From Candidatus Omnitrophota bacterium (GTDB lineage: Bacteria; Omnitrophota; Gorgyraeia; Aquiviventales; Aquiviventaceae), in assembly GCA_016180575.1 (NCBI GenBank), contig JACPAY010000008.1, positions 14,234 to 78,233 of the forward strand: a stretch of 64,000 nucleotides of DNA, in the 5' to 3' direction. The notes under the pieces were generated by a model. That model searched no databases. It was not told the origin of the DNA and was given only the letters and a program-made list of their open reading frames with translations. The position numbers and the translations under genes are program-made. Below, one piece after another: positions 10,306 through 46,917 of this stretch; the first letter of the stretch is position 1, and the number at the start of each line of letters is the position of its first letter.

Positions 10306-11381
10306 TGGCCTCCCCCCAGCCGGTGCTCGCCATCACCTGCGGAGATCCCTGCGGGGTCGGGCCGGAAGTGCTCCTCAAGGCGCTTGCGCAGGCGCGTCCG
10401 CCCCGGCGGCTCCGGCTGGCGGTGATCGGCGATCGCATCGTCTTTGAGGAGACGGCCCGGCGGCTCCGGCGCCGGCTTCCCCCGTGGCGGGTGGTCCGCG
10501 CCCCCCAGCGTCCGCGTCCAGGCGATTCCCTCACGCTCATCGATTGCCGCCGCAGCGACCGGTTTGCGCCGGGACGCTCATCGCGGGAGGCCGGGGCGGC
10601 CTCGCTCGCCTACCTCGAGGAGGCGCTTGCGCTCTGGCGCGCCGGCAGCCTGGGGGCGCTCGTGACCGGGCCGGTCACCAAGTGGGCGATCCGCCGCGTG
10701 CGCCCCTCGTTTGTGGGCCAGACGGAGTACCTGGCGCGCGCCATGAGGATCCGCGATGTCGTGATGCTGTTCGTCTCGGACTCTCTGCGGGTGGCGCTCC
10801 TGACCCGCCATATCCCGCTGCGCCGCGTCGCGGCGGCCGTCGACCGGGGGCTCGTGCAGCGCGCGGCGCGCCTCACCGCCGAGGCGCTGTCGGCCGCGTT
10901 TCGGATCCCCCGGCCGCGCCTGGCCCTGTGCGGGATCAACCCGCATGCCGGGGAAGGCGCACCCGCCTCCGAGGAGCGCCGCGTGCTGCTCCCGGCATTG
11001 CGGGCGCTGCGCCGTGAGGGGATCCGCTGCGAGGGGCCGTTCGCGGCGGACGGGCTGTTCGCCTCCCTGAGCGCTGCGCGGCCGCCCTTTGATGCCGTCA
11101 TCTCGCCCTACCATGACCAGGGGCTCATCCCGTTCAAGATGGTCGCCCGAGACCGCGGCTGCCAGATGAGCGTGGGGCTGCCGATCGTCCGCACCGCACC
11201 CGACCACGGAAGCGCCCTGGACATCGCGGGGCGGGGGGTGGCGGATCCCGGCTCGATGCGCTATGCGCTGGAGCTGGCCATGAGGCTGAGCATGTCCCGG
11301 GACCACGTCCCTGTTTCGCCTCCCTTATCCGATGGCGAAAGAGGGACGCGGTCTCCTCATTTGTATGCTGACGGTGCCTGA
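10305..11381 (+). CDS. pdxA: 4-hydroxythreonine-4-phosphate dehydrogenase
   Basis: ORF 10122..11381; ATG at 10305 overlaps the surA stop. Motifs: MASPQPVLAITCGDPCGVGPEV, GQTEYLA, NPHAGE, PDHGSALDIAG. The last ~30 codons run through a repeat element. Confidence 0.9.
   Translation: MASPQPVLAITCGDPCGVGPEVLLKALAQARPPRRLRLAVIGDRIVFEETARRLRRRLPPWRVVRAPQRPRPGDSLTLIDCRRSDRFAPGRSSREAGAASLAYLEEALALWRAGSLGALVTGPVTKWAIRRVRPSFVGQTEYLARAMRIRDVVMLFVSDSLRVALLTRHIPLRRVAAAVDRGLVQRAARLTAEALSAAFRIPRPRLALCGINPHAGEGAPASEERRVLLPALRALRREGIRCEGPFAADGLFASLSAARPPFDAVISPYHDQGLIPFKMVARDRGCQMSVGLPIVRTAPDHGSALDIAGRGVADPGSMRYALELAMRLSMSRDHVPVSPPLSDGERGTRSPHLYADGA
11294..11363 (+). repeat. Family-1 hairpin repeat, copy a (forward)
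   Basis: GTCCCGGGACCACGTCCCTGTTTCGCC-loop-GGCGAAAGAGGGACGCGGTCTCCTCATTTG. 20-bp arms with 2 mismatches. The right end abuts the rsmA ATG at 11365. Confidence 0.8.
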
Positions 11382-12192
11382 GCTCAAGGCGCTGCTGCGC
11401 TCGCGCGGCCTGCGGCTGACGAAGCGGCTCGGCCAGCATCACCTGGTGGACGCGGCCGTGCTTGAGCGGATCGTGGAGCGCTGCGGGCTCTCATCGCAGG
11501 ACACCGTCGTTGAGATCGGCGCGGGGCTCGGGGCGCTCACCGAGCCGCTGGCCCGGCGCTCCGGCCGCGTCGTGGCGGTGGAGGCCGACCGGGGCATCGC
11601 CAGCGCGCTGGCGGAACGGATGCGATCTCAGCGGAACGTGACGGTCGTGTGCGGGGACATCCTGCGGTTCGCGTGGGCGGACGTCCCCGGCGCCGTCGTG
11701 GTCGGCGCGATCCCCTATCAGCTCACCTCGCCGATCCTCGGGGTACTCGCCGAATCGCGCCGGGCGATCCGGAAGGTCGTGCTGATCATCCAGGAGGAGG
11801 TGGCGCAGCGCCTCCTCGCGTCCCCGGGGACGAAGGCCTACGGGCGGCTCACGCTGCTGGGGCAGTACTGCTGGGACATCAGGCCGCTGCTGGACATCCC
11901 GCGCCGCGCCTTCTTCCCGCAGCCGGCGGTCGATTCCCGGTGCGTGGAGCTGACGCCGAAGACGCGCGGGGCGGTCCGGGTGGCGGATGAGCGGCTGTTC
12001 TTCGACCTGGTGAAGCGGGCGTTCGCGCATCGCCGCAAGACGCTGGTCAACTGCCTCAGCGGCCCGGGCGGCCTGCCGCGCGCCGAGGCGGAAACCCTCG
12101 TGGCGGCGCTGGGCCTGCCGCCCGCCGTGCGGGGGGAAACACTCTCGCTTGCGCAGTTCGCGGCGCTTGCGAACCTCCTCGGCTCCTGCTGA
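11365..12192 (+). CDS. rsmA: 16S rRNA (adenine1518/1519-N6)-dimethyltransferase
   Basis: ORF 11332..12192. Motifs: LGQHHLVD, VVEIGAGLGALT SAM motif, IPYQLTSP. ATG at 11365 is preferred because 11332 lies inside the repeat; the start is uncertain. Confidence 0.9.
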   Translation: MLTVPELKALLRSRGLRLTKRLGQHHLVDAAVLERIVERCGLSSQDTVVEIGAGLGALTEPLARRSGRVVAVEADRGIASALAERMRSQRNVTVVCGDILRFAWADVPGAVVVGAIPYQLTSPILGVLAESRRAIRKVVLIIQEEVAQRLLASPGTKAYGRLTLLGQYCWDIRPLLDIPRRAFFPQPAVDSRCVELTPKTRGAVRVADERLFFDLVKRAFAHRRKTLVNCLSGPGGLPRAEAETLVAALGLPPAVRGETLSLAQFAALANLLGSC

Positions 12193-12210
12193 GAAGTGCC
12201 TGGCACTTTT

Positions 12211-12219
12211 TGCTATAAT
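12211..12219 (+). promoter_or_regulatory. Putative extended -10 promoter element TGcTATAAT upstream of gatC
   Basis: TGCTATAAT at 12211-12219, 10 nt before the gatC ATG region. It is preceded by the palindrome AAGTGCC-T-GGCACTT and a T5 run. Confidence 0.35.
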
Positions 12220-12228
12220 GCGGATGAG

Positions 12229-12522: not shown

Positions 12523-12530
12523 CCCCGCGC

Positions 12531-14067: not shown

Positions 14068-15499
<1,432 letters not shown>

Positions 15500-15503
<4 letters not shown>

Positions 15504-19462: not shown

Positions 19463-20223
19463 CCTCCATGCTCGACGAGCGCCGGCTTCGGCGATGGATG
19501 GGCGAGGTCCGCGACGGCCGCCTGGCGCCCCGCGTCGTGGTGGAGACGCTTCGCCGCCTTCCGTTTGAGGACCTGGGTTTCGCGCGGCTGGACACCCATC
19601 GGCGGCTCCGCCGCGGGCTGCCCGAGGTCGTGCTGGGAGAGGGCAAGACTTCGGCGCAGCTCATCCGGATCGCCCGCCGGATGAGCGCCGCCGGTGAGTC
19701 GGTGCTGGTGACGCGGCTGGATCCCCACGTCTTCCAGGCCGTGCGCCGCGCCCTCCCGTTCCTGCGCTACGACCCCGTGGCGCGGCTCGCCTATCGGCCC
19801 GTCGGGTCCCGGCGGCGCCTGCGCGGGTTCGTCCCGGTGATGACCGGCGGAACGTCGGATGTGCCCGTCGCGGAGGAGGCGGCCCTGACGCTGGAGCTGC
19901 TGGGCAGCCGGACCGCGCGGGTCTACGACGTCGGCGTCGCCGGCGTGCACCGCCTGCTCGCCCAATGGCGGCTGCTGCGGCGCGCGCGCGCCATCGTCGT
20001 GGTGGCCGGGATGGAGGGGGCGCTGGCCAGCGTGGTGGCCGGGCTCGTGCCCTGTCCGGTGATCGCCGCGCCCACGAGCGTCGGGTACGGCGCAAGCTTC
20101 CAGGGCCTGGCGCCGCTCCTCACCATGCTGAACAGCTGCGTGCCGGGGATCGGGGTGGTGAACATCGATAACGGCTTCGGGGCGGCGTATCTCGCCCACC
20201 TCATCAATGCGGGGTACACATGA
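19459..20223 (+). CDS. larB: Nickel-pincer cofactor biosynthesis protein LarB (PurE-like AIR carboxylase family)
   Basis: ORF 19459..20223. LGFARLDTHRRLRRGLPEVVLGEGKT, VMTGGTSDVPVAEEAA, VVAGMEGALASVVAG, GYGA. ATGA-type overlap upstream. Confidence 0.85.
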   Translation: MTSMLDERRLRRWMGEVRDGRLAPRVVVETLRRLPFEDLGFARLDTHRRLRRGLPEVVLGEGKTSAQLIRIARRMSAAGESVLVTRLDPHVFQAVRRALPFLRYDPVARLAYRPVGSRRRLRGFVPVMTGGTSDVPVAEEAALTLELLGSRTARVYDVGVAGVHRLLAQWRLLRRARAIVVVAGMEGALASVVAGLVPCPVIAAPTSVGYGASFQGLAPLLTMLNSCVPGIGVVNIDNGFGAAYLAHLINAGYT

Positions 20224-20313
20224 GGAGTCCGGTTCCCTCTTTCCCATCGGAACACTCGAGGAAACAGGGAACCGGACCCGGGACCATAGGAAAATGGGAC
20301 GTGGTCCCGGGAC
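20217..20313 (-). repeat. Family-1 hairpin repeat, copy b (reverse) plus an adjoining half copy
   Basis: CACATGAGGAGTCCGGTTCCC...GGGAACCGGACCCGGGAC (20217-20284) is about 90% identical to the reverse complement of copy c. GGAAAATGGGACGTGGTCCCGGGAC (to 20313) is a second right arm. The larB TGA lies inside the element end. Confidence 0.8.
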
Positions 20314-20657
20314 AGTCGTTCCAGGGAATCCGGCTGCGGGCGGGGGCCGTGCGTCTGAAGCCGGGAGGGGCGATGGAGTGGCATTCCACCCGGTCGCGCG
20401 AGGAGCTGCTGGTGCTGCTCGCCGGCCAGGTCGGCCTTGAGACGGAGGGTTCCCGTCATCGTCCCTCGACTCGCGTTGCTCGCTCGGGACGACCCCGAGC
20501 AAGGGCCCTTCGGCCAAGGCCGGGGCCCGCGTCGAGGGGTCGCGTCCGGCGCGTGGCGCTGCGGGCCGGGCAGTGCGCGTGGATTCCCCCGCGCACGGTG
20601 CATCGCGTCGTCAACCGCTCCGCGGCCAGCGCGTGGTACCTCTACGTCACCGCATGA
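20220..20657 (+). CDS. Cupin-domain protein with a ~35-aa Arg/Pro-rich insertion between the two cupin motifs
   Basis: ORF 20220..20657. Motif-1-like [22 protein letters not shown] and motif 2 [17 protein letters not shown]. The start is uncertain: the ATG at 20220 is inside a repeat, and GTG at 20301 is the alternative. Confidence 0.6.

Positions 20658-22413: not shown

Positions 22414-22417
<4 letters not shown>
20654..22417 (+). CDS. gspE: Type II secretion / type IV pilus assembly ATPase (GspE/PilB family) with N-terminal T2SSE_N domain and Pro/Ala linker
   Basis: ORF 20573..22417; ATG at 20654 makes an ATGA overlap with the cupin stop. Walker A is GPTGSGKTT, plus Asp/His boxes, Walker B (IIMVGEIRD) and a tetracysteine CPAC...CDKCRGCG. 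Confidence 0.9.
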
Positions 22418-23691
<1,274 letters not shown>

Positions 23692-30116: not shown

Positions 30117-30126
30117 GGGCCACCAC

Positions 30127-30342: not shown

Positions 30343-30350
30343 CAGCGATA

Positions 30351-30418: not shown

Positions 30419-30419
30419 A

Positions 30420-33687: not shown

Positions 33688-33701
33688 TCGGAAAGGAGCC
33701 C

Positions 33702-34671: not shown

Positions 34672-34672
34672 G

Positions 34673-35696: not shown

Positions 35697-36171
35697 CATC
35701 GTGTCGAAGGTGAATCTGCAGGAGCTGCGGAATGCGCTCCAGCAGGCGCAGAAGGAGGTCGCGACACGGTTCGACTTCCGCGGCAGCCGCGCCGGCATCG
35801 CGTTTGAGGAGTCGCCGCCGGTGGTCAAGCTCACCGCGGATCAGCCTGCCCAGCTGAAGGGCGTGCTCGACGTGCTGCAGGGGAAGATGGCGAAGCGGGG
35901 CGTGCCGCTGAATGCCTTCCGGTGGGATCCGCCCGACACGCTCCCGGGCGGCGGCGCCAAGCAGCAGGGCCATCTCCAGCAGGGATTGAGCACGGAGCAC
36001 GCCCGGGACATCGTGGCGACGATCAAGGCGCTGGGCTTGAAGGTGCAGCCGCGCATCGATGGCGATGCGGTGCGGGTGAGCGCGAAGGCGATTGATGACC
36101 TCCAGACGGTCATCCAGGCCGTGAGAGCGAAGGGCTTCCCGGTCCCCCTGCAGTTCGAAAATTACCGCTGA
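35674..36171 (+). CDS. yajQ: YajQ family (UPF0234) nucleotide / cyclic-di-GMP-binding protein
   Basis: In-frame ATG at 35674. MSDAHSFDIVSKVNLQELRNALQQAQKEVATRFDFRGS ... PLQFENYR matches the YajQ family end to end. Confidence 0.88.
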   Translation: MSDAHSFDIVSKVNLQELRNALQQAQKEVATRFDFRGSRAGIAFEESPPVVKLTADQPAQLKGVLDVLQGKMAKRGVPLNAFRWDPPDTLPGGGAKQQGHLQQGLSTEHARDIVATIKALGLKVQPRIDGDAVRVSAKAIDDLQTVIQAVRAKGFPVPLQFENYR

Positions 36172-36187
36172 ACGGTGGTGTCTCAAT

Positions 36188-36278
36188 GTGGCGGGTCCTG
36201 CCGCGCCGCCACCCCGTCGGCTGTCCTCGGCCTTCGCCTGCGGGCAGGCGACGGGGTCCCCGGCTCTGCGTCACCCGC
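36188..36278 (+). repeat. Family-2 structured repeat, copy a
   Basis: GTGGCGGGTCCTGCCGCGCCGCCACCCCGTCGG...CGACGGGGTCCCCGGCTCTGCGTCACCCGC. About 90% identical to 55655-55751, with nested stems. Confidence 0.8.
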
Positions 36279-36330
36279 CAAATTGAGTGTTTGGGGTGTC
36301 CCGGTATCCATCTTCTGATAGGGCTGTGGG

Positions 36331-36825
36331 TTGCAAGGCTCAATCGAGCAGTTTCTAGCGCAGGTTGCCCGGCGGGGGTCCTGGGTGGGCGGGGGGAGTG
36401 TCGCGGCGTTCAGCGCGGCGCTCTCGGCCGCGCTCCTCGAAAAGTTGGTCCATGACCCCGCCGCCGCCCGGCGTCTCGGCGCGGTGCGCCGGGAGTGCCT
36501 GGCGCTGCTGGACCGGGACGCGGAGGCGTTCGCCCGCGTCATCCGGACGACGCGGCGCAAGGACCGGCGGGCCTTCCGGGCAGCGCTCCAGGCGGCGACC
36601 GAAGTGCCCTGCCGCGTCTTCGAGCACGCCCAGCGGGTGCAGGCCGCGTGCCGCGCCGCCCAGCAAGCCGTCAAGCCGAGATTCCAGTCGGACCTGCGGT
36701 GCGCGATGGCCGTGGCGATCGCCGCGGGGGAATCGGCCCGCACGCTGATTCACACCAACCTCGCCTGGCTGAACGACCCGGCCTATGCGAAGCGAATCCG
36801 CCGAAGGCTCCAGGCCGCCGGATGA
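36331..36825 (+). CDS. Cyclodeaminase/cyclohydrolase-family protein (FtcD C-terminal / FchA-like)
   Basis: ORF 36331..36825 with a TTG start. GGGSVAAFSAALSAALLEKLV and an all-helical remainder typical of the formiminotransferase-cyclodeaminase C-domain. ATGA overlap with folD. Confidence 0.7.
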   Translation: MQGSIEQFLAQVARRGSWVGGGSVAAFSAALSAALLEKLVHDPAAARRLGAVRRECLALLDRDAEAFARVIRTTRRKDRRAFRAALQAATEVPCRVFEHAQRVQAACRAAQQAVKPRFQSDLRCAMAVAIAAGESARTLIHTNLAWLNDPAYAKRIRRRLQAAG

Positions 36826-37691
36826 CCGAGCAGCTTCTCCGCGCAGCCGATATCGTCGACCGGCTGGAGCCGCAGCTCAAACGGGACATCGACCAGCTCC
36901 GCGCACAGCACGGGAAGGGGCCGCACCTCCGCATCCTCTACTTTACGGACCACTCGCCCTCGATCTTGTTTAAAAACGCGCAAGAAAAGGTCGCGAGGCG
37001 GCTTGGCATCACCCCGGGAACTCAGGGCTGCGATTGGGGGCATGTGACACGTGAAGAGGTGAAACGCGTGATCACGCAATGGAACCGCGACCCGGCGGTC
37101 CACGGAATCTTCGTCCATCAGCCGCTGCCTCCGCAGCTGGACGCTCAGGAGATTTCCACGCTCATTGATCCGCAGAAGGACGTGGAGGGCATCCATCCGC
37201 AAAACTCCGCCAGGCGGTTTTTCGCTAAGGCGCGGATCGGGTCCTGCACGGCGCTCGCGGTCATGGAGCTGATCGACGAGGCGCTCCGGCGGAGCGGGGG
37301 CACGCTGGAAGGCAAGGAGGCCGTGGTCGTCGGGCACAGCGAGATCGTGGGGCGCCCCGTGGGGATGCTGCTGCTGGACCGGCTGGCGACGACGACGGTG
37401 TGCCACGTGGCGACGAAGGCGCTTCAGCAGCACGTGGAGCGGGCGGACGTCCTGGTGGTGGCGGTCGGGCAACCCGAGCTCATCAAGGGCGCGTGGATCA
37501 AACCGGGCGCGGTCGTCATCGACGTCGGCATCAACGTGGTCGGGGGGAAGGTGGTGGGCGATGTGGAGTTCGAGGCCGCCCGCGCGCGCGCGGCCTTCCT
37601 CACGCCGGTCCCCGGCGGGGTGGGCCCGGTCACCGTCATGATGGTGATGAAGAACACCGTGGAAGCGTTCAAGCTCCAACAAAAAGGTTAG
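36822..37691 (+). CDS. folD: Bifunctional 5,10-methylene-THF dehydrogenase / 5,10-methenyl-THF cyclohydrolase
   Basis: In-frame ATG at 36822. VHGIFVHQPLP, DVEGIHP, VVGHSEIVGRPVGMLL, TPVPGGVGPVTVMM. Confidence 0.93.
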   Translation: MTEQLLRAADIVDRLEPQLKRDIDQLRAQHGKGPHLRILYFTDHSPSILFKNAQEKVARRLGITPGTQGCDWGHVTREEVKRVITQWNRDPAVHGIFVHQPLPPQLDAQEISTLIDPQKDVEGIHPQNSARRFFAKARIGSCTALAVMELIDEALRRSGGTLEGKEAVVVGHSEIVGRPVGMLLLDRLATTTVCHVATKALQQHVERADVLVVAVGQPELIKGAWIKPGAVVIDVGINVVGGKVVGDVEFEAARARAAFLTPVPGGVGPVTVMMVMKNTVEAFKLQQKG

Positions 37692-37773
37692 CGTGTTTGC
37701 GCGTTTGCGAGTTTGCGCGTTCGTGTCACGGTAGACTGAACGCGCCAACGCGCCAACGCGCCAACGCGTGAAC
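37691..37773 (+). repeat. Octad-repeat-armed hairpin between folD and metF
   Basis: Left arm GCGTGTTT GCGCGTTT GCGAGTTT GCGCGTTC (37691-37723), right arm (CGCGCCAA)x3 CGCGTGAA (37738-37773). About 33 bp paired, with a T.C mismatch recurring every 8 nt. Ends 5 nt before the metF ATG. Confidence 0.8.
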
Positions 37774-37778
37774 TCAAC

Positions 37779-38663
37779 ATGAGTTTGTCTGAGTCGAATA
37801 GGTTCGAAGCGAAGCTAGGGAAGAAAACGTTCTTAGTCACGATGGAGGTCAACCCGCCGAAGGGGACCGATCTCTCCGAGATCCTGAGCGCGGTGGCGCG
37901 GGTCAAGGGGCTCGTGGACGCCATCAATGTCACCGACGGCTCAGGCGCCATCATGCGCGCCTGTCCCCTGGCGGTGGCGAAGAGCGTGCTGGATGCCGGG
38001 GTGGACCCCATCTTCCAGATGACCTGCCGCGACCGCAACCGCCTCGCGCTGCAGGCGGACCTGCTCGGGGCCGCCATCCTCGGCATCCGGAACGTCCTCC
38101 TGCTCACCGGCGACGACCCGAAAGCCGGGGACCACCCCGACGCCAAGCCGGTCTTTGACATCAACTCCGCCGCGCTCATGCAGGCCGCGAAGGGGCTCGC
38201 CGAGGGCAAGGACATGGCCGGGAAGCCGCTCGCCGGCTCGCCGCAATTCTGCATCGGGGCGGCGGCCGATCCCGGGGCGAAGGACCTCGACGTGGAGCTG
38301 CAGAAGTTCCAGGCCAAGATCGGGGGCGGCGCCGCGTTCTTCCAGACGCAGGCGGTCTTCGATCCCGCGAAGCTGGCGGCCTTCATGGGCCGGGCCAAGC
38401 CGTTCGGCAAGCCGGTGCTGGCGGGGATCCTGCTCGTCAAATCGGCGAAGATGGCGCGCTACATGAACGACCACGTGTGGGGCATCCACGTCCCGGATGA
38501 CCTCATCGCGCGCTTCGAGCGCGCCGCGGACAAGCGGGCGGAGTGCGTGGCCGTGACGACCGAGCTCATCCGCGCCGTCCGGCAGTCGGCGGACGGCATC
38601 CATCTCTACGCCCTCGGCTGGGAGGACCTCGTGCCGGACATCCTGACGAAGGCGCTCGCATGA
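37779..38663 (+). CDS. metF: 5,10-methylenetetrahydrofolate reductase
   Basis: ORF 37779..38663. FLVTMEVNPPKG, AINVTDGSGA, FQMTCRDRNRLALQADLLGA, LLLTGDDP, FFQTQAVFD. Confidence 0.9.
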   Translation: MSLSESNRFEAKLGKKTFLVTMEVNPPKGTDLSEILSAVARVKGLVDAINVTDGSGAIMRACPLAVAKSVLDAGVDPIFQMTCRDRNRLALQADLLGAAILGIRNVLLLTGDDPKAGDHPDAKPVFDINSAALMQAAKGLAEGKDMAGKPLAGSPQFCIGAAADPGAKDLDVELQKFQAKIGGGAAFFQTQAVFDPAKLAAFMGRAKPFGKPVLAGILLVKSAKMARYMNDHVWGIHVPDDLIARFERAADKRAECVAVTTELIRAVRQSADGIHLYALGWEDLVPDILTKALA

Positions 38664-39808
38664 GCTCGGCGCTCACCACGGGACCCCTGCAGAAGACGGC
38701 GCTCCACGAGCGGCACCGGCAGCTCGGCGCCAAGATGACCGACTTCCACGGCTGGGACATGCCGCTCTACTACACGAGCATCCTCGAGGAGCACCAGGCG
38801 GTGCGCCAGGCCCTGGGGCTCTTCGACGTCTCCCACATGGGCCAGGTCCTCGTGACCGGTCCCGACGCGCGCGAGACGCTGAACCGGTGCCTGGTGAGCG
38901 ACCTCGCGCAGGTGGAGAGCGGGCGCGCCTGCTACACGCTCATGCTGAACCCGGAGGGCGGGATTCTGGACGACCTCATCGTCTACCGGCTCGGCGAGCA
39001 GGACTACCTGGTCATCGTCAACTGCGGCAACCGCGCAAGCGACGTCGCGTGGCTCAACGCCCACCGCGAGGGCCGCGCCACCGTCACCGACATCAGCCAG
39101 GGCCGCTCGATCGTCTCGGTCCAGGGGCCGCTGGCCTGCCGGGTGCTGGAGCAGATGCTGGACGCGAAGGTCGCCGGGCTCTCGCGGTTCGGCATCGCGC
39201 CCGTCCGCCACATGGGCCCTGAGGCATGCATCGCCCGCACGGGATACACGGGCGGCGACGGCTTTGAGCTGTTCCTCCCCGACGCCCACGCCAAGCGGCT
39301 GTGGGACGCCATCCTGAGCGCCGCCCAGCCGCTCGGCGCGCGTCCGGTCGGGCTCGGCGCGCGGGACACCCTGCGGGTCGAGGCGGGGCTGCGGCTCTAC
39401 GGGACCGACATGGACGCCTCGACCAGCCCCCTCGAGGCGGGCCTCGAGTGGACGGTGGCGGCCAACAAGCCGGACTTCATCGGCCGCGCGGCGCTGGCGC
39501 ACCAGCGCCTGCAGGGCCTCACGCGCCGGTTCGCCGGGTTCGAGCTCGCGCAGGGGCCGATCCCGCGCGGCGGGACCGCGCTGGAGGCGGGCGGGCGGAT
39601 CGTCGGCACGGTCACCAGCGGGACGTTCAGTCCGGTCCTGAACAAGCCGCTCGGCATGGGCTATGTGGAGCCGGCATGCGCGGCGCCGGGCGTTGCGCTC
39701 ACGATGACGGTCCGGAGCCAGCGGTACGCGGCGACCGTGGTCAAGCTGCCCTTTTGGAAAGGACAGGCGAAACAGCCCGCGATCCCCAACCTGGAGCGCA
39801 CAACGTGA
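38660..39808 (+). CDS. gcvT: Glycine cleavage system aminomethyltransferase (T protein)
   Basis: In-frame ATG at 38660 with an ATGA overlap. LHERHRQLGAKMTDFHGWDMPLYY, LFDVSHMG, ARTGYTGGDGFEL, GLGARDTLRVEAG. Confidence 0.95.
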   Translation: MSSALTTGPLQKTALHERHRQLGAKMTDFHGWDMPLYYTSILEEHQAVRQALGLFDVSHMGQVLVTGPDARETLNRCLVSDLAQVESGRACYTLMLNPEGGILDDLIVYRLGEQDYLVIVNCGNRASDVAWLNAHREGRATVTDISQGRSIVSVQGPLACRVLEQMLDAKVAGLSRFGIAPVRHMGPEACIARTGYTGGDGFELFLPDAHAKRLWDAILSAAQPLGARPVGLGARDTLRVEAGLRLYGTDMDASTSPLEAGLEWTVAANKPDFIGRAALAHQRLQGLTRRFAGFELAQGPIPRGGTALEAGGRIVGTVTSGTFSPVLNKPLGMGYVEPACAAPGVALTMTVRSQRYAATVVKLPFWKGQAKQPAIPNLERTT

Positions 39809-40188
39809 TGCAGGTCCCTGCGGAGTTGCGGTACACCAAGACGCACGAGTGGATGAAGCGCGAGGCCAGCGAGGCGGTCGTCGGCATCACGGCCCACGCG
39901 CAGGAGGAGCTGCGGGACGTGGTGTTCGTGGAGCTGCCGAAGGTCGGCAAGGCGGTGAAGCAGGGAGAGCCGGCGGCGGTCATCGAGTCGGTCAAGGCCG
40001 CGTTCGACATCTACGCCCCGGTCTCCGGCACCGTGACCCGCGTCAACGAGGCGGTGGCGAAAACGCCCCAGCTCGTCAACCAGGATTGCTATGGGGCCGG
40101 GTGGCTCTTTGCCCTCGCCCCGAGCGCGCCGGCGGAGGCGTCGTCGCTGCTCTCGTCAGAGGCATATGCAAAACAGGTCCAGGCGTAA
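39808..40188 (+). CDS. gcvH: Glycine cleavage system H protein
   Basis: In-frame ATG at 39808. LRYTKTHEWM, lipoyl-lysine motif IESVKAAFDIYAPVSG. Confidence 0.95.
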   Translation: MQVPAELRYTKTHEWMKREASEAVVGITAHAQEELRDVVFVELPKVGKAVKQGEPAAVIESVKAAFDIYAPVSGTVTRVNEAVAKTPQLVNQDCYGAGWLFALAPSAPAEASSLLSSEAYAKQVQA

Positions 40189-40199
40189 GTCGGCGAATA

Positions 40200-40262
40200 T
40201 CCCGGGGACACGTCCATTTTCCCGTCCTCGGCCGAGAGGAAAATAGACGCGTCCCCGCATCG
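40200..40262 (+). repeat. Family-1 hairpin repeat, copy d (forward, divergent right end)
   Basis: TCCCGGGGACACGTCCATTTTCC-loop-GGAAAATAGACGCGTCCCCGCATCG. Ends 1 nt before the gcvPA ATG. Confidence 0.75.
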
Positions 40263-40263
40263 A

Positions 40264-41607
40264 ATGGATTACGCCCCGAACACCGACGCCCAGCTGCAGG
40301 AGATGCTCCGCGCCATCGGCGTGGGTTCGTTCGAATCGCTCATCAGCACGGTGCCGGCGGAGCTTCACGCGCGCGCGCTCGAGGTGCCGTCGGGATTGGC
40401 CGAATCGGAGGTGATCGCGCTCGGCGAGGAGCTGGCCGGGCGCAACCGCGCGCTCACCGAGGTCGTCTCGTTCCTCGGGGCGGGCTGCTATGCGCACCTC
40501 ATCCCGACGGTGGTGGATGCCCTCGCCTCCCGCGGCGAATGGCTGACGCCCTACACCCCCTATCAGGCCGAGGCGAGCCAGGGGACGCTGCAGGCGATCT
40601 ATGAGTTCCAGACGATGGTGTGCGAGCTCTTCCAGATGGACGTCGCCAACGCCTCGCTCTATGACGGCGCCTCCAGCGTCGCGGAGGCGGCGCTGCTGGC
40701 GCTCCGGACGACCGAGCGGTCCCGCATCCTGGTCTCCGAGGCGGTGCATCCGCACGCCCGCGAGACGCTGGCGACCTACCTGATCGGCTCAACGGCCACC
40801 GTGCAGGAGATCCCCACGGTCAACGGGGTCACGGACCTCGAGGCGCTCGGCAAGGCGCTGCGGGACGACGTGGCGTGCGTGATCCTGCAGCAGCCGAACG
40901 TGTTCGGCTGCCTCGAGCCGATGGGGCAGGCGGGCGAGCTGGCGCACCGCGTCGGGGGGCTCTTCATCGCGTCGGTCTACCCGATCAGCCTGGGGCTGCT
41001 CCAGCCGCCCGGCGCCTACGGCGCGGACATCGCGGTCGCCGAGGGCCGCTGCCTCGGCAGTCCCCCGGCCTACGGCGGGCCGGGCCTCGGGCTCTTCACG
41101 ACGACGAGCGCGCTGCTGCGCAAGGTGCCGGGCCGCCTCGCCGGCTGCACCGTGGACCAGGCCGGGCGGCGCGCGTTCACCCTGACGCTGCAGACGCGCG
41201 AGCAGCACATCCGGCGGGAGCGGGCGACCTCGAACATCTGCACGAACGAAGGGTGGCTCGCCCTGCGGGCCACCATCTTCCTGAGCCTGCTCGGCCCCAG
41301 GGGGATGCAGGAGCTGGCCCGGCTCAACCTCGAGAAGGCGCGCTACGCCCGCGAGCGGCTGCGGGAGATCCCGTGGATTTCGCCGGCGTTCGACCAACCA
41401 GTGTTCAATGAGTTCACGCTCCAGTTCGATGCGGCGCATCCGGTGGAGGCGGTCAACCGGCGGCTGGCCGCCGCGGGCTTCGCAGGCGGGTTTCCGCTCG
41501 CCGAGTGGTACCCGGCGATGCCGCAGGGCTCGCTCTGGTGCGTGACGGAGCTCATCAGCAAGGCCTCCATCGACCGGCTCATCGAGGTCTTGAAGCGGGT
41601 GGGGTGA
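40264..41607 (+). CDS. gcvPA: Glycine dehydrogenase (decarboxylating) subunit 1
   Basis: ORF 40264..41607, 447 aa. FLGAGCYAH, TPYTPYQAEASQG, REQHIRRERATSNICTNE. Confidence 0.95.
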   Translation: MDYAPNTDAQLQEMLRAIGVGSFESLISTVPAELHARALEVPSGLAESEVIALGEELAGRNRALTEVVSFLGAGCYAHLIPTVVDALASRGEWLTPYTPYQAEASQGTLQAIYEFQTMVCELFQMDVANASLYDGASSVAEAALLALRTTERSRILVSEAVHPHARETLATYLIGSTATVQEIPTVNGVTDLEALGKALRDDVACVILQQPNVFGCLEPMGQAGELAHRVGGLFIASVYPISLGLLQPPGAYGADIAVAEGRCLGSPPAYGGPGLGLFTTTSALLRKVPGRLAGCTVDQAGRRAFTLTLQTREQHIRRERATSNICTNEGWLALRATIFLSLLGPRGMQELARLNLEKARYARERLREIPWISPAFDQPVFNEFTLQFDAAHPVEAVNRRLAAAGFAGGFPLAEWYPAMPQGSLWCVTELISKASIDRLIEVLKRVG

Positions 41608-43112
41608 TGTCCATGTCGGGTCCCCTTATTTTCGAGCGGTCCGTCCCGGGACGGCGCGGCTACGTCCTGCCTCCGGGCGATGTGCCCGCTGTGCCCGCCG
41701 CTGACGCGCTGCCCGAGGACCAGCTGCGCGCGATCCCTCCGCGCCTGCCCGAGGTCGCGGAGTTCGACGCGGTGCGGCACTACACCCGGCTCTCGCAGGC
41801 CAACTTCTCCGTCGACACCCACTTCTACCCGCTGGGCTCCTGCACGATGAAGTACAACCCGAAGCTCAATGAGCGCATCGCGGCGCTCCCAGGCTTTGCC
41901 TGGCTGCATCCGCTGCAGCCGGCCTCCCAGGTGCAGGGCATCCTGCAGCTCCTCCATGAGCTGGAACAGCTCCTCTGCGCGGTGACCGGCATGGCCGCGT
42001 TCACGCTGCAGCCCGCGGCGGGCGCCCAGGGCGAGCTGACCGGGCTCAAGATCATCGCGGCCTATCACAGGCGCCGCCGGGCGCGGTCCACGATCCTGAT
42101 CCCCGACTCGGCTCATGGGACCAACCCCGCCTCGGCGGCGCTGTCCGGCTTCACCGTGGTCCAGGTCAAGTCCGGGCCGGACGGGCTCATCGACCTGCAG
42201 GAGCTGCGGCGCAAGCTGACGAAGGACGTCGCCGCCCTGATGCTCACCAACCCGAACACGCTGGGGCTCTTCGAGCGGGAGATCAAGACCATCGCAGCGC
42301 TCCTGCACGAGCAGGGGGCGCTGGTCTACATGGACGGCGCGAACATGAACGCGCTGCTCGGCATCTCGCGCCCCGGCGACATGGGGGTGGACCTGCTGCA
42401 ACTGAATCTCCACAAGACGTTCTCCACGCCGCACGGCGGCGGCGGGCCCGGGGCTGGCCCGGTGGGGGTCACAAAGGCGCTGGAGGAGTTCCTGCCGGTG
42501 CCCCGCGTGCGGAAGACGGGCGCCCGGTTCCGGTGGGAGACGCGGGGCCGCGCGACGGTCGGCCGCGTCCACGGGTTTTACGGCAACGTCGGGGTGCTGG
42601 TCCGGGCGTACGCGTACATCCGCACCCTCGGCCGCGAGGGGCTCGCGCGGGCGAGCCGTACCGCGATCATCAACGCGAACTACCTCAAGGCCAAGCTGCA
42701 GGAGGCGTTCCCGGTGCCGTTTGACGACCACTGCATGCACGAGTTCGTCGTGACGCTCAAACCGCTCCTGGCGCATGGCGTCAGCGCCGGGGACGTGGCG
42801 AAGCGGCTGCTCGATTACGGGCACTACGCGCCGACGGTGTACTTCCCGCTCATCGTCGAGGAGGCGCTGATGATCGAGCCGACCGAGACGGAGTCGAGGG
42901 AGACGCTGGACGAGTTCGCCAAGGCGCTCGTCGCCATCGCCCACGAGGCGCAGCACAACCCGGAGCTGGTGCGGCGCGCCCCCCAGCGCATGGTGGTGGA
43001 CCGCGTGGACGAGGTGAAGGCCGCGCGCGAGCCCAACTTACGCTATCACGCCAGTCCCGGGACCGCTTCGGCGCTCCACGCGAGTCCCGGGGACAGGTCC
43101 ATTTTTCCATGA
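41607..43112 (+). CDS. gcvPB: Glycine dehydrogenase (decarboxylating) subunit 2
   Basis: In-frame ATG at 41607. YPLGSCTMKYNP; PLP-lysine context NLHKTFSTPHGGGGPG. The C-terminal ~20 codons run into repeat copy e. Confidence 0.94.
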   Translation: MSMSGPLIFERSVPGRRGYVLPPGDVPAVPAADALPEDQLRAIPPRLPEVAEFDAVRHYTRLSQANFSVDTHFYPLGSCTMKYNPKLNERIAALPGFAWLHPLQPASQVQGILQLLHELEQLLCAVTGMAAFTLQPAAGAQGELTGLKIIAAYHRRRRARSTILIPDSAHGTNPASAALSGFTVVQVKSGPDGLIDLQELRRKLTKDVAALMLTNPNTLGLFEREIKTIAALLHEQGALVYMDGANMNALLGISRPGDMGVDLLQLNLHKTFSTPHGGGGPGAGPVGVTKALEEFLPVPRVRKTGARFRWETRGRATVGRVHGFYGNVGVLVRAYAYIRTLGREGLARASRTAIINANYLKAKLQEAFPVPFDDHCMHEFVVTLKPLLAHGVSAGDVAKRLLDYGHYAPTVYFPLIVEEALMIEPTETESRETLDEFAKALVAIAHEAQHNPELVRRAPQRMVVDRVDEVKAAREPNLRYHASPGTASALHASPGDRSIFP

Positions 43113-43150
43113 CGAGACAATGGGAAAAATAGACCAGTCCTCCTCATTTG
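43054..43150 (+). repeat. Family-1 hairpin repeat, half copy plus copy e (forward)
   Basis: GTCCCGGGACCGCTTCGG (half, from 43054), then GTCCCGGGGACAGGTCCATTTTTCC-loop-GGAAAAATAGACCAGTCCTCCTCATTTG (43084-43150). Confidence 0.8.
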
Positions 43151-43845
43151 TGTGGCGCATCTTCATCGATGGACCGCGCCCCGCCGCCGAGCAGATGGCG
43201 CGCGATGAGGCGCTGGCGCAGACGCCCGTCCCGACGGCGCGGCTCTACCGGTGGGCGCCGCCGGCCATCTCGCTGGGCTGGAAGCAGCCGCGCCCCGAGT
43301 GGTGCGAGCCGGCTCGGTGGACCGCGGCGGGGCTCGAAGCCGTCGAGCGGCCCACCGGCGGCGGGATCGCCGTCCACGGCAGCGACGTCTCCATCGGGGT
43401 GGTCGTTCCGCGCGCCGCGGGGTGCCATCTCGACACGCTGATGAGCGCGGTCTGCGGGAGTGCGGCCGAGCTGTGCCGGGCGTATGGGGTTGCGGCCTCC
43501 ACCTTGCTGGACGCGCCGGCTGACGGGCGGGTGACCTGCTGCCTCGCGGAGCCCAGCCCCTATGCGGTGCTGGTGGGCGGGAGGAAAGTGGCTGGCTTCG
43601 CCCTCCGGCGCTACCCCTGGGCATGGCTCATCCAGGGCTCGCTGCTGGTGCGGCCGATCCCAGAGGGGCTGGCGCGCGCCATGCCGTCGGAGGCGATCCG
43701 TGAGTTGGAGACGCGGGCCGTCTCGCTGGCCGAAGCGGCCGGGGAGACGGTGACAGAGCAAGAGGCGGCCGAGCGGTGGGCCGCCCACTGGGCCTCGTGG
43801 TGGGAGGCGCCGGCCCGAGGGGCGCTCGTGCACGATGCGATGTGA
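43120..43845 (+). CDS. Lipoate-protein ligase / octanoyltransferase family protein (BPL_LplA_LipB domain)
   Basis: ORF 43120..43845. RLYRWAPPAISLGW.Q, ERPTGGGIAVHG, GRKVAGFALRR. GTG at 43150, just past the repeat, is an alternative start. Adjacent to the gcv genes. Confidence 0.72.
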   Translation: MGKIDQSSSFVWRIFIDGPRPAAEQMARDEALAQTPVPTARLYRWAPPAISLGWKQPRPEWCEPARWTAAGLEAVERPTGGGIAVHGSDVSIGVVVPRAAGCHLDTLMSAVCGSAAELCRAYGVAASTLLDAPADGRVTCCLAEPSPYAVLVGGRKVAGFALRRYPWAWLIQGSLLVRPIPEGLARAMPSEAIRELETRAVSLAEAAGETVTEQEAAERWAAHWASWWEAPARGALVHDAM

Positions 43846-44002
43846 CACCTGCAAGCAGGAGAGCGCCGTTGTGATGCGGGTGGTCATCGCCAAGGACTAC
43901 AACCGCAGCATGAGCCGGCCGATCTTCAACTGCCCGTCATGTTTTGACCAGAAGGAGCAATCCAAGGACCGCGCAACCAAGAGGAGGACGTCGCCCGCAT
44001 GA
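43835..44002 (+). CDS. Small zinc-ribbon protein, 55 aa (below the ORF-track cutoff)
   Basis: MRCDTCKQESAVVMRVVIAKDYNRSMSRPIFNCPSCFDQKEQSKDRATKRRTSPA. Has CxxC...CxxC. It overlaps the upstream stop and makes an ATGA overlap with the downstream start. Confidence 0.5.
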   Translation: MRCDTCKQESAVVMRVVIAKDYNRSMSRPIFNCPSCFDQKEQSKDRATKRRTSPA

Positions 44003-44994
44003 TCACCACACTCGTCGGCAGCTACCCCAAGGTCGCTGAAGGCGCCTATTCAACCAAGCTCATCGGCGCCATCACGAAGTGGCAGCGCCAGGAAGTGACC
44101 GATGACCAACTGGAGGAGACCTGCCAGGAGATCACCACGGCGGTCATCCGGGAGCAGGAGCAGGCCGGGGTGGACCTGGTCACGGACGGCCAGATCCGCT
44201 GGGAAGACCTGGTGACGCCGATCGCACGGGGGCTGGAGGGCTTTGAGATCAACGGCCTCTCCCGCTGGTTCAACAACAATGTCTACTACCGCCGGCCCAT
44301 CCTGCACAAGGCCCCGGCGCGTCGGCGGCCGATCCTCGCGGACCAGTACCGGTTCGCGGCGCGCGCCGCGACCAGGCCGGTCAAGGCCATCCTGCCGGGC
44401 CCCTACACCTTCGCGGCGCTCTGCGAGGACCGGCATTACAACTCGTTCCGGCGGTTCGCCCTGAAGATGGCCGAGCTCCTGCACGCCGAGGCGCAGGACC
44501 TGGTCAAGGCCGGGGCCCCGCTCGTCCAGTTCGACGAGCCCGCGGTCGGCTTCGGGAAGACCGACCTGAAGCTGGCGGTCGAGGCGCTCGGCGTCGCGGC
44601 GCGCGGGTTGAAGGCGAAGACCGCCGTCTACACGTACTTCGGCTCGCTCGACGGCGGGCTGGCGGCCCTGCAGCGCGCCCCGGTCGATGTGATCGGCCTC
44701 GACGTCGTCTCGGATCCCAAGACGCTGGCGGCGCTGAAGCGGGTGAAGCTCACCAAGGAGATCGCCCTCGGCTGCCTGGACGCGCGGAACACCAAGCTCG
44801 AATCGGTGACCGAGCTGCACGCCCTGTTCGCCGTGGCGGCGAAGCGGGTGCCGCTGGACCGCCTCTACGTCAATCCGAACTGCGGGCTCGAATTCCTGCC
44901 GCACCGCCAGGCGCTTGCCAAGGTCAAGCGGCTGGTCGAGGCGGTGCGCAGCTTCAAACGCGGTATCAGATACCAATCGAAGATTGGTATCTGA
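43999..44994 (+). CDS. MetE-like (cobalamin-independent methionine synthase family) barrel protein lacking the full Zn-ligand set
   Basis: ORF 43999..44994. LVGSYPK, DGQIRWEDLV, ILPGPYTFA, NPNCGLEF. The H-x-C site is replaced (AVYTYFGS). Confidence 0.7.
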   Translation: MITTLVGSYPKVAEGAYSTKLIGAITKWQRQEVTDDQLEETCQEITTAVIREQEQAGVDLVTDGQIRWEDLVTPIARGLEGFEINGLSRWFNNNVYYRRPILHKAPARRRPILADQYRFAARAATRPVKAILPGPYTFAALCEDRHYNSFRRFALKMAELLHAEAQDLVKAGAPLVQFDEPAVGFGKTDLKLAVEALGVAARGLKAKTAVYTYFGSLDGGLAALQRAPVDVIGLDVVSDPKTLAALKRVKLTKEIALGCLDARNTKLESVTELHALFAVAAKRVPLDRLYVNPNCGLEFLPHRQALAKVKRLVEAVRSFKRGIRYQSKIGI

Positions 44995-44999
44995 TACCG
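44961..44999 (+). repeat. Perfect 18-bp inverted repeat (3-nt loop) containing two GGTATCnGATACC palindromes
   Basis: CGGTATCAGATACCAATC-GAA-GATTGGTATCTGATACCG. The upstream stop codon TGA (44992-44994) lies in the second palindrome. SD AAGAGGAGGA follows. Confidence 0.9.
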
Positions 45000-45013
45000 A
45001 AAGAGGAGGACCC

Positions 45014-46009
45014 ATGTTGTTGACGACGTCTGTCGGCAGCCTGCCCAAGCCGGACTACCTGACCAAGGCGCGGTCGCAGGCGCGCAAAGGCGAAATGGAT
45101 GCGAAGCGGCTCCGCGCGCTCGAGGAGCAGGCGACCCGCGAGTGGATCGCGATCCAGGAAGGGCTGGGCCTCGACGTCCTGGTGGACGGCGAGCAGTACC
45201 GCGGCGACATGGTCGCCTACTTCGCCGAGCACCTCGCCGGGTTCGCGCAGAGCGAGCTGGTGCGCTCCTATGGCAACCGGTACTACCGCAAACCCATCAT
45301 CACCAGCCGGATTGCGCGGCCGCGGCCGATCACGGTCGAGTGGTGGCGGTTCGCCCAGGCCCTGACGACGCGGCCGGTGAAGGGAATGCTCACCGGCCCC
45401 TACACGATCATGGACTGGTCGTTCAACGAGCACTACCCCTCACGCCGGGCAGCGACCTTGGCGATCGCCCAGGTGGTCCGCGAGGAGGCCAGGGACCTCG
45501 AGCGCGCCGGGGCGCAGTACGTCCAGGTGGATGAGCCGGCCATCTCGACGCGCCCGGAGGAGATGGACCTCGCCATCGAAGCGCTCGGCATCGTCACGCG
45601 GGGCCTGCGGGCGAAGACCATCACGCACATCTGCTACGGCGACTTCAAGACGATCGGGCCGAAGCTCCACCGGCTGCCGGTGGACCAGATCGACCTGGAG
45701 TTCGCCAACCGCAACTTCGAGCTGCTCGACTTCTTCAAGGGCCGGCGGTTTCCGAAGGAGATCGGGCTCGGGGTGGTGGACGTGCACAGCCACCGCGCGG
45801 AGTCGAGGGACGAGGTCGTCGAGGGCTTGCGCAAGGCGCTCACGGTCTTCCGCCCGGAGCAGCTCATGGTGGATCCGGACTGCGGCCTCAAGACGCGCAC
45901 ACCGGAGGAGGCCATCGCGAAGCTGCGGGTGGTCGTCGAGGCGACCCGCGAGGTCCGCGAGGCGCTCGGCAATGGACGCGGAACCGGCGCGAAGAGGGCG
46001 AAACGGTGA
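45014..46009 (+). CDS. MetE-like catalytic-domain protein (Zn ligands present)
   Basis: In-frame ATG at 45014 after AAGAGGAGGA. VGSLPKPDYL, LVDGEQYRGDMV, MLTGPYTIMDWSF, THICYGDF, VDPDCGLKTR. Confidence 0.8.
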   Translation: MLLTTSVGSLPKPDYLTKARSQARKGEMDAKRLRALEEQATREWIAIQEGLGLDVLVDGEQYRGDMVAYFAEHLAGFAQSELVRSYGNRYYRKPIITSRIARPRPITVEWWRFAQALTTRPVKGMLTGPYTIMDWSFNEHYPSRRAATLAIAQVVREEARDLERAGAQYVQVDEPAISTRPEEMDLAIEALGIVTRGLRAKTITHICYGDFKTIGPKLHRLPVDQIDLEFANRNFELLDFFKGRRFPKEIGLGVVDVHSHRAESRDEVVEGLRKALTVFRPEQLMVDPDCGLKTRTPEEAIAKLRVVVEATREVREALGNGRGTGAKRAKR

Positions 46010-46857
46010 CCAAGCGGATCACGATCGCTGACCTCCAGGCGCGCAAGCGGCAGGGCGGAAAGCTCGCCATGCTCACCGCCTACGACTACCCCATCGCCAA
46101 GCTGGTGGACGAGGCCGGGGTGGACATGGTGCTGGTCGGCGATTCGCTCGGGATGGTGGTGCTCGGCTATGAGACCACGACCCCGGTGACGATGGACGAG
46201 ATGCTCCACCACGCCAAGGCGGCCCGGCGGGGGGTCTCGCGCGCGCTGCTCATCGGCGACATGCCGTTCCTCTCGTTCCGCGCCACGCGGGCCGACGCGG
46301 TCCGCAACGCGGGACGCTTCGTCCAGGAGGCGGGCTGCGACGCCGTGAAGGTGGAGTGGAAGCCCGGCATCGAGGACACCGCCAGGGCCATCATCGACGC
46401 CGGGATCCCGGTCATGGGGCACGTCGGGCTCACCCCCCAGACGGCGGCGAGCGAGGGCGGCTTCGGCATGCGGGGCAAGGATGCCGAGTCGGCCGCGCGA
46501 ATCATCGCGCAGGCGGTCGCGCTCCAGGAGGTCGGCTGCTTCGCGATGGTGCTCGAGTGCATCCCCGACGTCGTGGCCCAGGAGATCACCCAGCGCCTGT
46601 CGATCCCGACGATCGGGATCGGGTCAGGGCCTTTCTGCGACGGGCAGGTGCTCGTTACCTACGACCTGCTCGGCCTGTTCGACCGGTTCACCCCGGCGTT
46701 CGCCAAGCGCTACGCGGACCTCTCCCGCGTCATCCGGGAGGCCTCGGCGTCGTTCGTACAGGAGGTCCGGGCAGGGGCCTTTCCCGGCAAGGAGCACACC
46801 AGGTCCATGGCGCCCGACGAATACGACAAGCTGAAAAAAGGGACCGGGTACGAATGA
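46006..46857 (+). CDS. panB: 3-methyl-2-oxobutanoate hydroxymethyltransferase
   Basis: ORF 46006..46857 with a GTG start. MLTAYDY, LVGDSLGMVVLGY, VKVEW, GHVGLTPQ, IPTIGIGSG. Confidence 0.93.
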   Translation: MTKRITIADLQARKRQGGKLAMLTAYDYPIAKLVDEAGVDMVLVGDSLGMVVLGYETTTPVTMDEMLHHAKAARRGVSRALLIGDMPFLSFRATRADAVRNAGRFVQEAGCDAVKVEWKPGIEDTARAIIDAGIPVMGHVGLTPQTAASEGGFGMRGKDAESAARIIAQAVALQEVGCFAMVLECIPDVVAQEITQRLSIPTIGIGSGPFCDGQVLVTYDLLGLFDRFTPAFAKRYADLSRVIREASASFVQEVRAGAFPGKEHTRSMAPDEYDKLKKGTGYE

Positions 46858-46917
46858 GGGGACGCTTCTATTTTTCCAATCGGATGCGTCGGGGAAAAAT
46901 GGAAGTGTCCCCGGGAC
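46851..46917 (-). repeat. Family-1 hairpin repeat, copy f (reverse)
   Basis: CGAATGAGGGGACGCTTCTATTTTTCC-loop-GGAAAAATGGAAGTGTCCCCGGGAC. The panB TGA lies in the element end, and the next gene's ATG (46899) lies in the other arm. Confidence 0.8.

Follow-up and report, generated by a model that had tools for sequence, protein, structure and literature searches.

How can a short repeat lie again and again between the genes of compact operons without breaking them? The question is raised by a 64-kb stretch of DNA (hereafter, the window) from a Candidatus Omnitrophota bacterium (GenBank assembly GCA_016180575.1, contig JACPAY010000008.1, positions 14,234 to 78,233), in which a first-pass annotation, made from the sequence alone, had reported a hairpin repeat family sitting on gene boundaries, and had likened it to repetitive extragenic palindromes (REPs) or miniature inverted-repeat transposable elements (MITEs). 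We followed this family through the window and through related metagenome-assembled genomes (MAGs) and metagenomes. It is probably a family of small copied elements, non-coding and confined to one lineage, of the REP/REPIN or MITE type, for which REP/REPIN-like is the better label; the likeness to a MITE in the strict sense fell away with the absence of terminal inverted repeats and of target-site duplications. Its copies appear to be tolerated, and possibly used, at operon junctions.

Six full copies of a structured element in the window

A detection pattern derived from the six copies, TCCCGGGNNCNNNTCCNNNTTNCN{18,30}GANNNNKNCN{0,1}CCNCAT, matched the six known sites and none elsewhere in the window, with no match in 100 shuffles, and the positions and strands first given for the full copies proved correct (Table 1). 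For a covariance model, we drew on 58 distinct copies found in the window, in two MAGs and in three metagenomes; the model recovered the same six with scores of 60–87 bits (E = 1e-14 to 1e-21) and found no seventh full copy in the window; one candidate at 44955–45009 (E = 0.15) was dismissed as an unrelated AT-rich hairpin. A hairpin of ~20 bp was predicted for each of the six, with z-scores of -4.7 to -7.1 in five of them and -2.6 in the copy at 43084. The copies have a G+C content of 51–62%, against 70% in the window.

Two half copies had also been proposed. That at 20285–20313 stands, as a 26-nt match to the 5' arm, and is what remains of a full copy of earlier date; in a three-way alignment, the same subtype lies intact at the same junction in metagenome contig L058. 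The other, at 43054–43075, is a probable 5' half, with 16 nt (GTCCCGGGACCGCTTC) identical to 5' arms in other loci and a model score of 7.2 bits (E = 7.9) that is weak taken alone, at a distance from its full copy that fits the tandem-half arrangement of other loci.

Table 1. Full and partial copies of the hairpin family in the 64-kb window.
Feature	Position	Strand	Orientation to genes	Junction	Remarks
c1, full copy	11294–11363	+	forward	pdxA / rsmA	model 80.2 bits over 11288–11363; hairpin -39 kcal/mol, z -7.1
c2, full copy	20217–20284	-	reverse	larB-like / cupin	model 84.7 bits; pattern match
half copy	20285–20313	-			5' arm GTCCCGGGACCACGTCCCATTTTCC, subfamily other than c2
c3, full copy	30351–30418	+	forward	rpmE / prfA	model 87.2 bits; pattern match
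c4, full copy	40199–40263	+	forward	gcvH / gcvPA	model 60.1 bits; most diverged (ATCCCGGG..., tail CCCCGCATCGA)
probable 5' half copy	43054–43075	+			GTCCCGGGACCGCTTC...; within 3' end of gcvPB frame, 30 nt upstream of c5
c5, full copy	43084–43150	+	forward	gcvPB / lipoate-ligase-like	model 72.6 bits; pattern match
c6, full copy	46851–46917	-	reverse	panB / sirohaem-synthase-like	model 77.1 bits; pattern match

Alignment of the 58 distinct copies, together with flank logos over 55 distinct sites, delimited a conserved unit of ~75–80 nt, composed of cGAYW-GTCCCGGG, an arm, a loop, a second arm, and CTCCTCATTTG followed by W-A. The architecture in the first-pass annotation was of this form, although short by ~5 nt on the 5' side (cGAYW) and by 2 nt on the 3' side (W-A). 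The leader cGAYW-GTCCCGGG is single-stranded and conserved in sequence, and the tail CTCCTCATTTG is likewise sequence-conserved. Between them stand a stem of ~20 bp, in which one internal mismatch is kept and both arms vary together between subfamilies, and a loop of 13–18 nt, usually ending in the conserved motif CCGATGG; the copies share an invariant CCCGGG core.

The stem is conserved as a structure, under selection. Seven of its 14 outer pairs are altered on both sides, and 93.9% of cells pair; shuffles reach 80.5%, and controls with a slid partner no more than 59%. The compensatory pair noticed earlier between the copies at 20217 and 30351 is among the differences that we see (U-A versus G-C), and so is the C.A or G.U stem irregularity that moves with the orientation of the element. 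Across the family, an internal C.A or A.C mismatch of the GTCCC strand turns into G.U on its complement, and the reverse holds for a G.U at the stem base; in 42 of the 58 copies, the complement is the more stable strand. A strand test that counted G.U against A.C was equivocal, as the internal mismatches favour the CAAATGAGGAG strand and the stem-base wobble the other.

The two ends of the unit differ from those of a classical MITE. No terminal inverted repeats were found, the inverted repeat being internal and the outermost 8–13 nt of either side not mutually complementary. Nor was a target-site duplication found: flank logos and copy-by-copy inspection of the 55 sites revealed no matching direct repeat at the two ends; A/T-rich dinucleotides adjoin the 3' end. 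Each end does carry a stop codon, TAG within cgaTAGtcc on one strand and TGA within caaaTGAgg on the other.

A terminator scan of 29000–47500 called no copy's main hairpin as an intrinsic terminator, whose G+C-rich stem would run into a U-tract, and returned fewer sites than shuffles; its only site within a copy (40246–40261, minus strand, in c4) is a 6-pair sub-stem. After the hairpin, one strand continues as CUCCUCAUUUG and the other as CCCGGGAC. The same scan of 29000–47500 gave no promoter-like site.

Copies occupy stop/start junctions within operons

All six window copies lie at junctions between genes (named by Pfam), and the rule extends well beyond the window. Across all loci, we counted 35 sites with co-directional coding-like sequence on both sides, and every one of them (35/35) is a gene junction, so that the stop/start placement first described for the window is general. 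The element lies in reverse, with its CAAATGAGGAG strand as the sense strand, at 24 of these sites and forward at 11.

In the reverse orientation, the TGA of the element is the stop codon of the upstream gene at 17 of 24 sites, and at three more the stop lies 0–1 nt before the element; the hairpin starts 4 nt after the TGA that is used, and the next start codon follows 2–24 nt past the element or lies in its far arm. Forward copies are arranged differently: the upstream stop is the TAG of cgaTAGtcc at 2 of 11 sites and lies 10–17 nt upstream at six, and at three the whole element is read through; an ATG follows 1–4 nt past the element at 7 of 11. With a stop codon at each end, the element is unusually compatible with operons. 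In one related MAG, copies follow nuoL, nuoM and nuoN in turn, and two copies flank part of a type IV pilus operon.

The window provides examples of each arrangement. As first annotated, the ATG codons of rsmA (11365), prfA (30420) and gcvPA (40264) trail the element by 1–2 nt, and the stops of the larB-like (AIR carboxylase family) and panB genes are supplied by it: the CACATGA end of c2 gives TGA 20221–20223, and the CGAATGA end of c6 gives TGA 46855–46857. Copy c3 fills the spacer between the rpmE stop (L31; ORF 30127–30342, stop 30340–30342) and prfA (RF-1), and c4 that between the gcvH stop (40186–40188) and gcvPA. Two upstream proteins gain tails encoded by the element. The PdxA frame reads through c1 to a stop at 11379–11381, and its Pfam match ends at residue 386 of 419, with an element-encoded tail of ~29 residues; the gcvPB frame ends within c5 (TGA 43110–43112) with a tail of ~21 residues. 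For the lipoate-ligase-like gene after c5, the GTG at 43150, at the end of the copy, is a possible start as first proposed, but ATG 43120 inside the element may be the start instead. In c6, the other arm contains an ATG (46899–46901) that shares the frame of the sirohaem-synthase-like gene, lies 10 codons ahead of that gene's Pfam domain and is conserved in an orthologue; it is likely the start of this gene downstream of panB.

Two further uses of the element in translation were considered and set aside. A translated bridge ORF is not supported, as the ATG of CAAATGA, which overlaps the TGA, is in frame with the downstream gene at about one third of reverse sites, the level expected by chance. 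A split Shine-Dalgarno arrangement (GGAG before the hairpin and AUG after it) is not favoured, because in the predicted folds the stem base takes up the GG of GGAG in pairs.

How copies came to be confined to junctions can be explained in two ways. The pattern can arise from selection, if an insertion survives only where it terminates the upstream frame immediately and the next start can still be used, and it can equally arise from a preference for AT-richer targets, which in a genome of 70% G+C are concentrated at stops, spacers and starts. The first-pass annotation had spoken of a striking insertion preference; the placement itself is borne out, but counter-selection elsewhere or AT-rich targeting would give the same picture as a preference for junctions.

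The family is narrowly distributed, copied and turned over

Among 185,579 species-representative genomes, the exact pattern occurred in two, both of them MAGs: JAHFGZ01, labelled Candidatus Omnitrophota by its depositor, with 25 matches, and CAZKXY01, labelled uncultured Planctomycetales by its depositor, with three. It was also present in 32 contigs from three Joint Genome Institute (JGI) metagenomes. A viral origin was dismissed, with no pattern match in 2.9 million viral contigs. Several of the loci are syntenic with the window at 80–92% identity, and the two MAGs share junctions at ~80%, which identifies the hosts as close relatives of the window organism. Copy density is ~1 per 10–15 kb.

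The family matches no catalogued one, in agreement with the first-pass annotation, which did not recognise it as a described family. At Rfam gathering thresholds, only two tRNAs matched in the window; at E values up to 5 over 40100–47000, which covers three copies, nothing overlapped a copy; and a full-text literature search found no description of the hairpin family.

Comparison of related genomes, ~80–92% identical, indicates copying and turnover. The 58 distinct copies form subfamilies with co-varying arms, and presence/absence differences were found at orthologous junctions. At the larB junction, contig L014 of a related MAG lacks an intact copy, L058 has one, and in the window the 5' arm of the L058 copy is followed by a full copy of another subfamily. 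In turn, L014 has a copy at a place where a 14-nt spacer containing a Shine-Dalgarno sequence is found in both the window and L058. Two more filled/empty pairs were found, in which the empty site is a TGA-A7 spacer in one case and an ATGA stop/start overlap in the other. At four orthologous junctions, the copies belong to different subfamilies, with 44–48 of 66–68 positions identical between flanks of 78–92% identity. Next to full copies stand partial ones, either 5' or 3' of them or on both sides, with up to three 5' modules in tandem.

A clean empty site, from which a target or a duplication could be read, was sought among these four filled/empty pairs; each of them carried extra differences or co-inserted partial copies. 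As a separate observation, two of the 'empty' junctions (L014 ~124–192 and L005 ~5708–5789) start with TGAGTTCC..., and the L014 spacer also has CGGGAC. They resemble collapsed relics with the arms deleted and, if this is what they are, the junctions would have been occupied repeatedly.

The family also leaves a mark on assemblies, with contigs breaking within the repeat in unitig-level assemblies. Four Logan contigs that carry the window's RF1 gene (L059–L062), all independent assemblies, start 30–35 nt upstream of prfA, inside c3; the repeat thus breaks short-read assemblies exactly at gene junctions.

No mobilising enzyme was found around the copies

The element was described at first as having neither coding capacity nor a transposase. 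It is non-coding, and an enzyme search of window ORFs and of ~384 kb around copies was empty. In the window, Pfam searches of the ORFs flanking the copies and of 10 further ORFs returned housekeeping families only, with no transposase. In the ~384 kb around copies, a phmmer search with a single E. coli RayT query against ORFs of at least 70 aa gave no RAYT-like ORF (best E = 2.8), and all-against-all BLASTP gave no multi-copy ORF. Pfam matches of the genes between and around clustered copies were to nuoL/M/N, ATP synthase and pilus genes; in contig L004, the two ORFs between two inverted copies are a secretin and a 97-aa ORF without a Pfam match. In the DNA around copies, solitary 5' and 3' ends occur only as partials adjoining full copies, and never 0.7–3 kb apart.

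Weighing the explanations

Under the REP/REPIN-like reading, the element may be transcribed as a stable hairpin between cistrons, and its folded single strand might be recognised by a HUH/Y1-type enzyme, as in RAYT or IS200/IS605 systems. Conserved flanks that are asymmetric, a stem that covaries, and ends with neither terminal inverted repeats nor target duplications favour such recognition over DDE cut-and-paste, and we put it forward tentatively, as a possibility. The built-in stop codons, together with a possible taste for AT-rich targets, would then let copies survive only at compact-operon junctions.

Four results weigh against this reading. No mobilising enzyme was found in the window or in the ~384 kb around copies. 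The four filled/empty pairs are not clean insertions, since their flanks differ and partial copies were often co-inserted, and because of this no precise insertion point or target motif can be defined. Neither strand is clearly the folded one, the C.A mismatches being offset by the stem-base G.U that favours the opposite strand. Finally, among orthologous copies, some keep an identity far above that of the coding DNA on either side, where a purely selfish, decaying element predicts otherwise.

The last point was seen in several orthologous pairs. Copy c6 and its counterpart in L033 are identical at 66 of 67 positions, between flanks of 82–87% (about 85%) identity; c3 and its orthologues in L050 and L051 at 67 of 68, between flanks of 82–94% (82–87% in the pair with L050); and the copies in L008 and L042 at 67 of 70, between flanks of ~80%. 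At 15% divergence, the binomial probability of at most one difference in 67 positions is ~2e-4. The copy-specific loops share in this conservation, and conversion from other copies would lose such private loops, which makes it likely, judging from these alignments, that some resident copies are under purifying selection. This suggests that the host is now locally dependent on some copies, for stop and start codons, for translational coupling or for mRNA stability.

The main rival, or complement, to the REP/REPIN-like reading is a cis-acting RNA of the host, that is, an intercistronic hairpin spread by duplication and kept by selection, which would serve translational coupling (with the start hidden until the upstream ribosome terminates) or mRNA processing and stability, its mobility being incidental or past. 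The ~98% identity of orthologous copies between flanks of 82–87%, with copy-specific loops included, is what such a function predicts, as is a covarying stem; but close genomes differ in the occupancy of their junctions, nested partial copies exist, and different subfamilies are found at four orthologous junctions. The setting within essential operons (nuoL-M-N, rpmE-prfA, gcvH-PA-PB) would also suit a host RNA, and so would the hairpin 4 nt after a used TGA, with the next start 2–24 nt past it or inside it. The orientation bias of 24 reverse to 11 forward sites points the same way, yet both orientations are common and give the ribosome quite different RNA sequences, the stem mismatches move with the element and not with the transcribed strand, and the forward orientation puts CUCCUC, not a Shine-Dalgarno sequence, ahead of the AUG. 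On balance, we hold this account to be rather unlikely. The first-pass annotation had preferred a copied or mobile sequence to locally evolved RNA structures: copying is borne out by the subfamilies, filled and empty sites, nesting and swaps, but the opposition between the two is not, given a possible host role and orthologous copies better conserved than their flanks.

A more speculative, and in our view unlikely, variant treats the element as a portable intercistronic junction on which the host depends, a single module of ~75 nt with an upstream stop in either orientation, a stable hairpin by which translation and mRNA decay of the cistrons would be coupled or insulated, and sometimes a downstream start, and with subfamilies interchangeable in function. 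If true, it would explain both the swaps of copy type at junctions that are kept and the ~98% copy identity beside flanks of 82–87%.

A classical MITE would be what internal deletion left of an insertion sequence (IS) with a DDE transposase, moved in trans by cut-and-paste, and this account is very improbable. MITE-like repeats, Correia for example, possess terminal inverted repeats along with TA duplications. The family at hand is small, non-coding and dispersed at ~1 copy per 10–15 kb, consists mostly of an inverted repeat and hence forms a hairpin, and has A/T-rich dinucleotides adjoining its 3' end, all of which would fit a MITE; its outermost nucleotides (cGAYW-GTCCCGGG and CTCCTCATTTG), however, do not complement each other, the flanking bases of the two ends are unmatched, hence no target-site duplication, and the DNA around copies contains neither a longer element with the same ends nor a multi-copy ORF.

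Also very improbable is a duplex binding site for a host protein of the nucleoid, gyrase or IHF type, as has been proposed for E. coli REP/BIME sequences, with the palindrome reflecting dimer binding and not folding: occurrence in both orientations, the invariant CCCGGG core, the conserved loop motif and the conservation of resident copies would fit, but the ~20 bp stem drifts in sequence while pairing is kept (7 of 14 pairs changed on both sides), which points to single-strand folding, and the asymmetric flanks are unlike a symmetric dimer site.

Comparison with known repeat families

Returning to the REP/REPIN-like label, REPs of E. coli and Pseudomonas carry a 5' GTAG tetranucleotide beside an imperfect palindrome, and REPINs are described as two inverted REPs that form one long hairpin and are mobilised by a single-copy RAYT. 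The RAYT gene (for a Y1 transposase) typically has such repeats on both sides. The family studied here resembles them as a set of short non-coding hairpin repeats with many extragenic copies and a restricted lineage; in its short conserved 5' motif beside a stem conserved in structure, and its subfamily populations; and in its long persistence, conservation at orthologous sites and vertical inheritance within a narrow lineage. It differs in that the 5' motif is GTCCCGGG after cGAYW, with GTAG in that place in no copy; in that the arms are not themselves palindromic REPs and are followed by an asymmetric conserved 3' tail; in that no RAYT gene was found beside any copy; and in that copies lie within operons at stop and start codons, whereas REPs mostly lie after operon ends.

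The ends of IS200/IS605 elements and of their non-autonomous derivatives likewise lack terminal inverted repeats and target duplication; their hairpins are recognised as folded single strands, with a short conserved sequence adjoining one end. The absence of inverted termini and of duplication, and cGAYW adjoining one end, recall this system. IS200/IS605 elements, however, carry a left hairpin, a right hairpin apart from it, and a gene for TnpA (Y1), whereas the present family has just one hairpin, and the search of ~384 kb around copies turned up no gene of this kind.

In their placement, the copies come close to the mycobacterial interspersed repetitive units (MIRUs), summarised in PMC3184786 (citing Supply et al. 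1997) as repeats of 40–100 bp in the spacers of polycistronic operons, co-transcribed, with ends that overlap adjacent genes and with filled and empty sites between species. Operon spacers, ends overlapping the flanking stop and start codons, and filled and empty sites are found here too. MIRUs, however, form tandem arrays, with tetranucleotide direct repeats at filled sites, whereas the present copies are dispersed single hairpins without duplication, among which only partial halves are tandem, and their lineage and sequence are unrelated to those of Mycobacterium.

Further small hairpin mobile repeats that are co-transcribed with their neighbours include ERIC/IRU, enterobacterial RU-1 to RU-3, Rickettsia RPE, Neisseria Correia and REP2, some of which lengthen the 3' ends of protein genes or fuse with them in frame; REP2 lies directly upstream of genes and contains a ribosome-binding site together with an ATG (PMC3184786; PMC2759123). 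The element-encoded tails of PdxA and GcvPB, and the in-frame start codon in c6, are comparable. These families are 100–170 bp long, however, and share no sequence with the hairpin family. In a literature search on these repeats, we found no report of stop codons at both ends that are usable in either orientation.

Taken as a whole, the family lacks what defines a MITE with terminal inverted repeats, a GTAG-type REP or a tandem MIRU, and the most economical reading is a previously undescribed family of the already known REP/REPIN-like repeat type. It would add a well-defined new small-repeat family from an uncultured high-G+C lineage and provide a useful natural case of a repeat that sits inside essential operons without breaking them, has a usable stop at both ends, and is turned over yet strongly conserved at some sites. 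As such, it is relevant to the question of how polycistronic gene expression comes to accommodate selfish DNA or to co-opt it. There are practical consequences as well: such repeats break metagenome assemblies at gene junctions, and, by shifting predicted starts and stops, they will lead gene callers to wrong C-terminal tails and N-termini nearby, of which PdxA, GcvPB and the gene that follows panB are examples.

Other repeats in the window

Several other repeats were observed in the window. Hairpins of a second kind, also at gene junctions, lie at 23703–23771, 24226–24294, 28139–28218 and 37687–37773. Their arms consist of 3–4 tandem heptamers (GGGACAG/CATGTCTC, GCGTAAT/CATTACG and GTTTGCG/CAACGCG); two of these hairpins flank a pilin-like gene (Pfam T2SSG, N_methyl), and the others follow polA and folD. 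At 20573–23691, just upstream of this pilin-like gene, stand two neighbouring genes for type II/IV secretion ATPases, paralogous to each other; their repeats D1 and D2, spaced 1268 nt apart, are 74–81% identical.

Two gene junctions (44961–44999 and 60427–60483) hold AT-rich hairpins, perfect or nearly so, whose arms are GTATCAGATAC. The second of them is preceded by GCGAATGAGGGAG, a stop codon and GGAG-like tail of the kind found in the GTCCCGGG family, and its TGA (60419–60421) ends the upstream gene. A third repeat family consists of a G+C-rich hairpin of ~90 nt (-63 kcal/mol, z -5.1), with copies at 36189–36279 and 55661–55751 in the window and at 3838–3930 of contig L025 in a related MAG. 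Lastly, a perfect 32-nt palindrome (ATAGGAGGGGGAAACC/GGTTTCCCCCTCCTAT) at 50114–50145 lies ~30 nt upstream of a tRNA gene (50178–50250).

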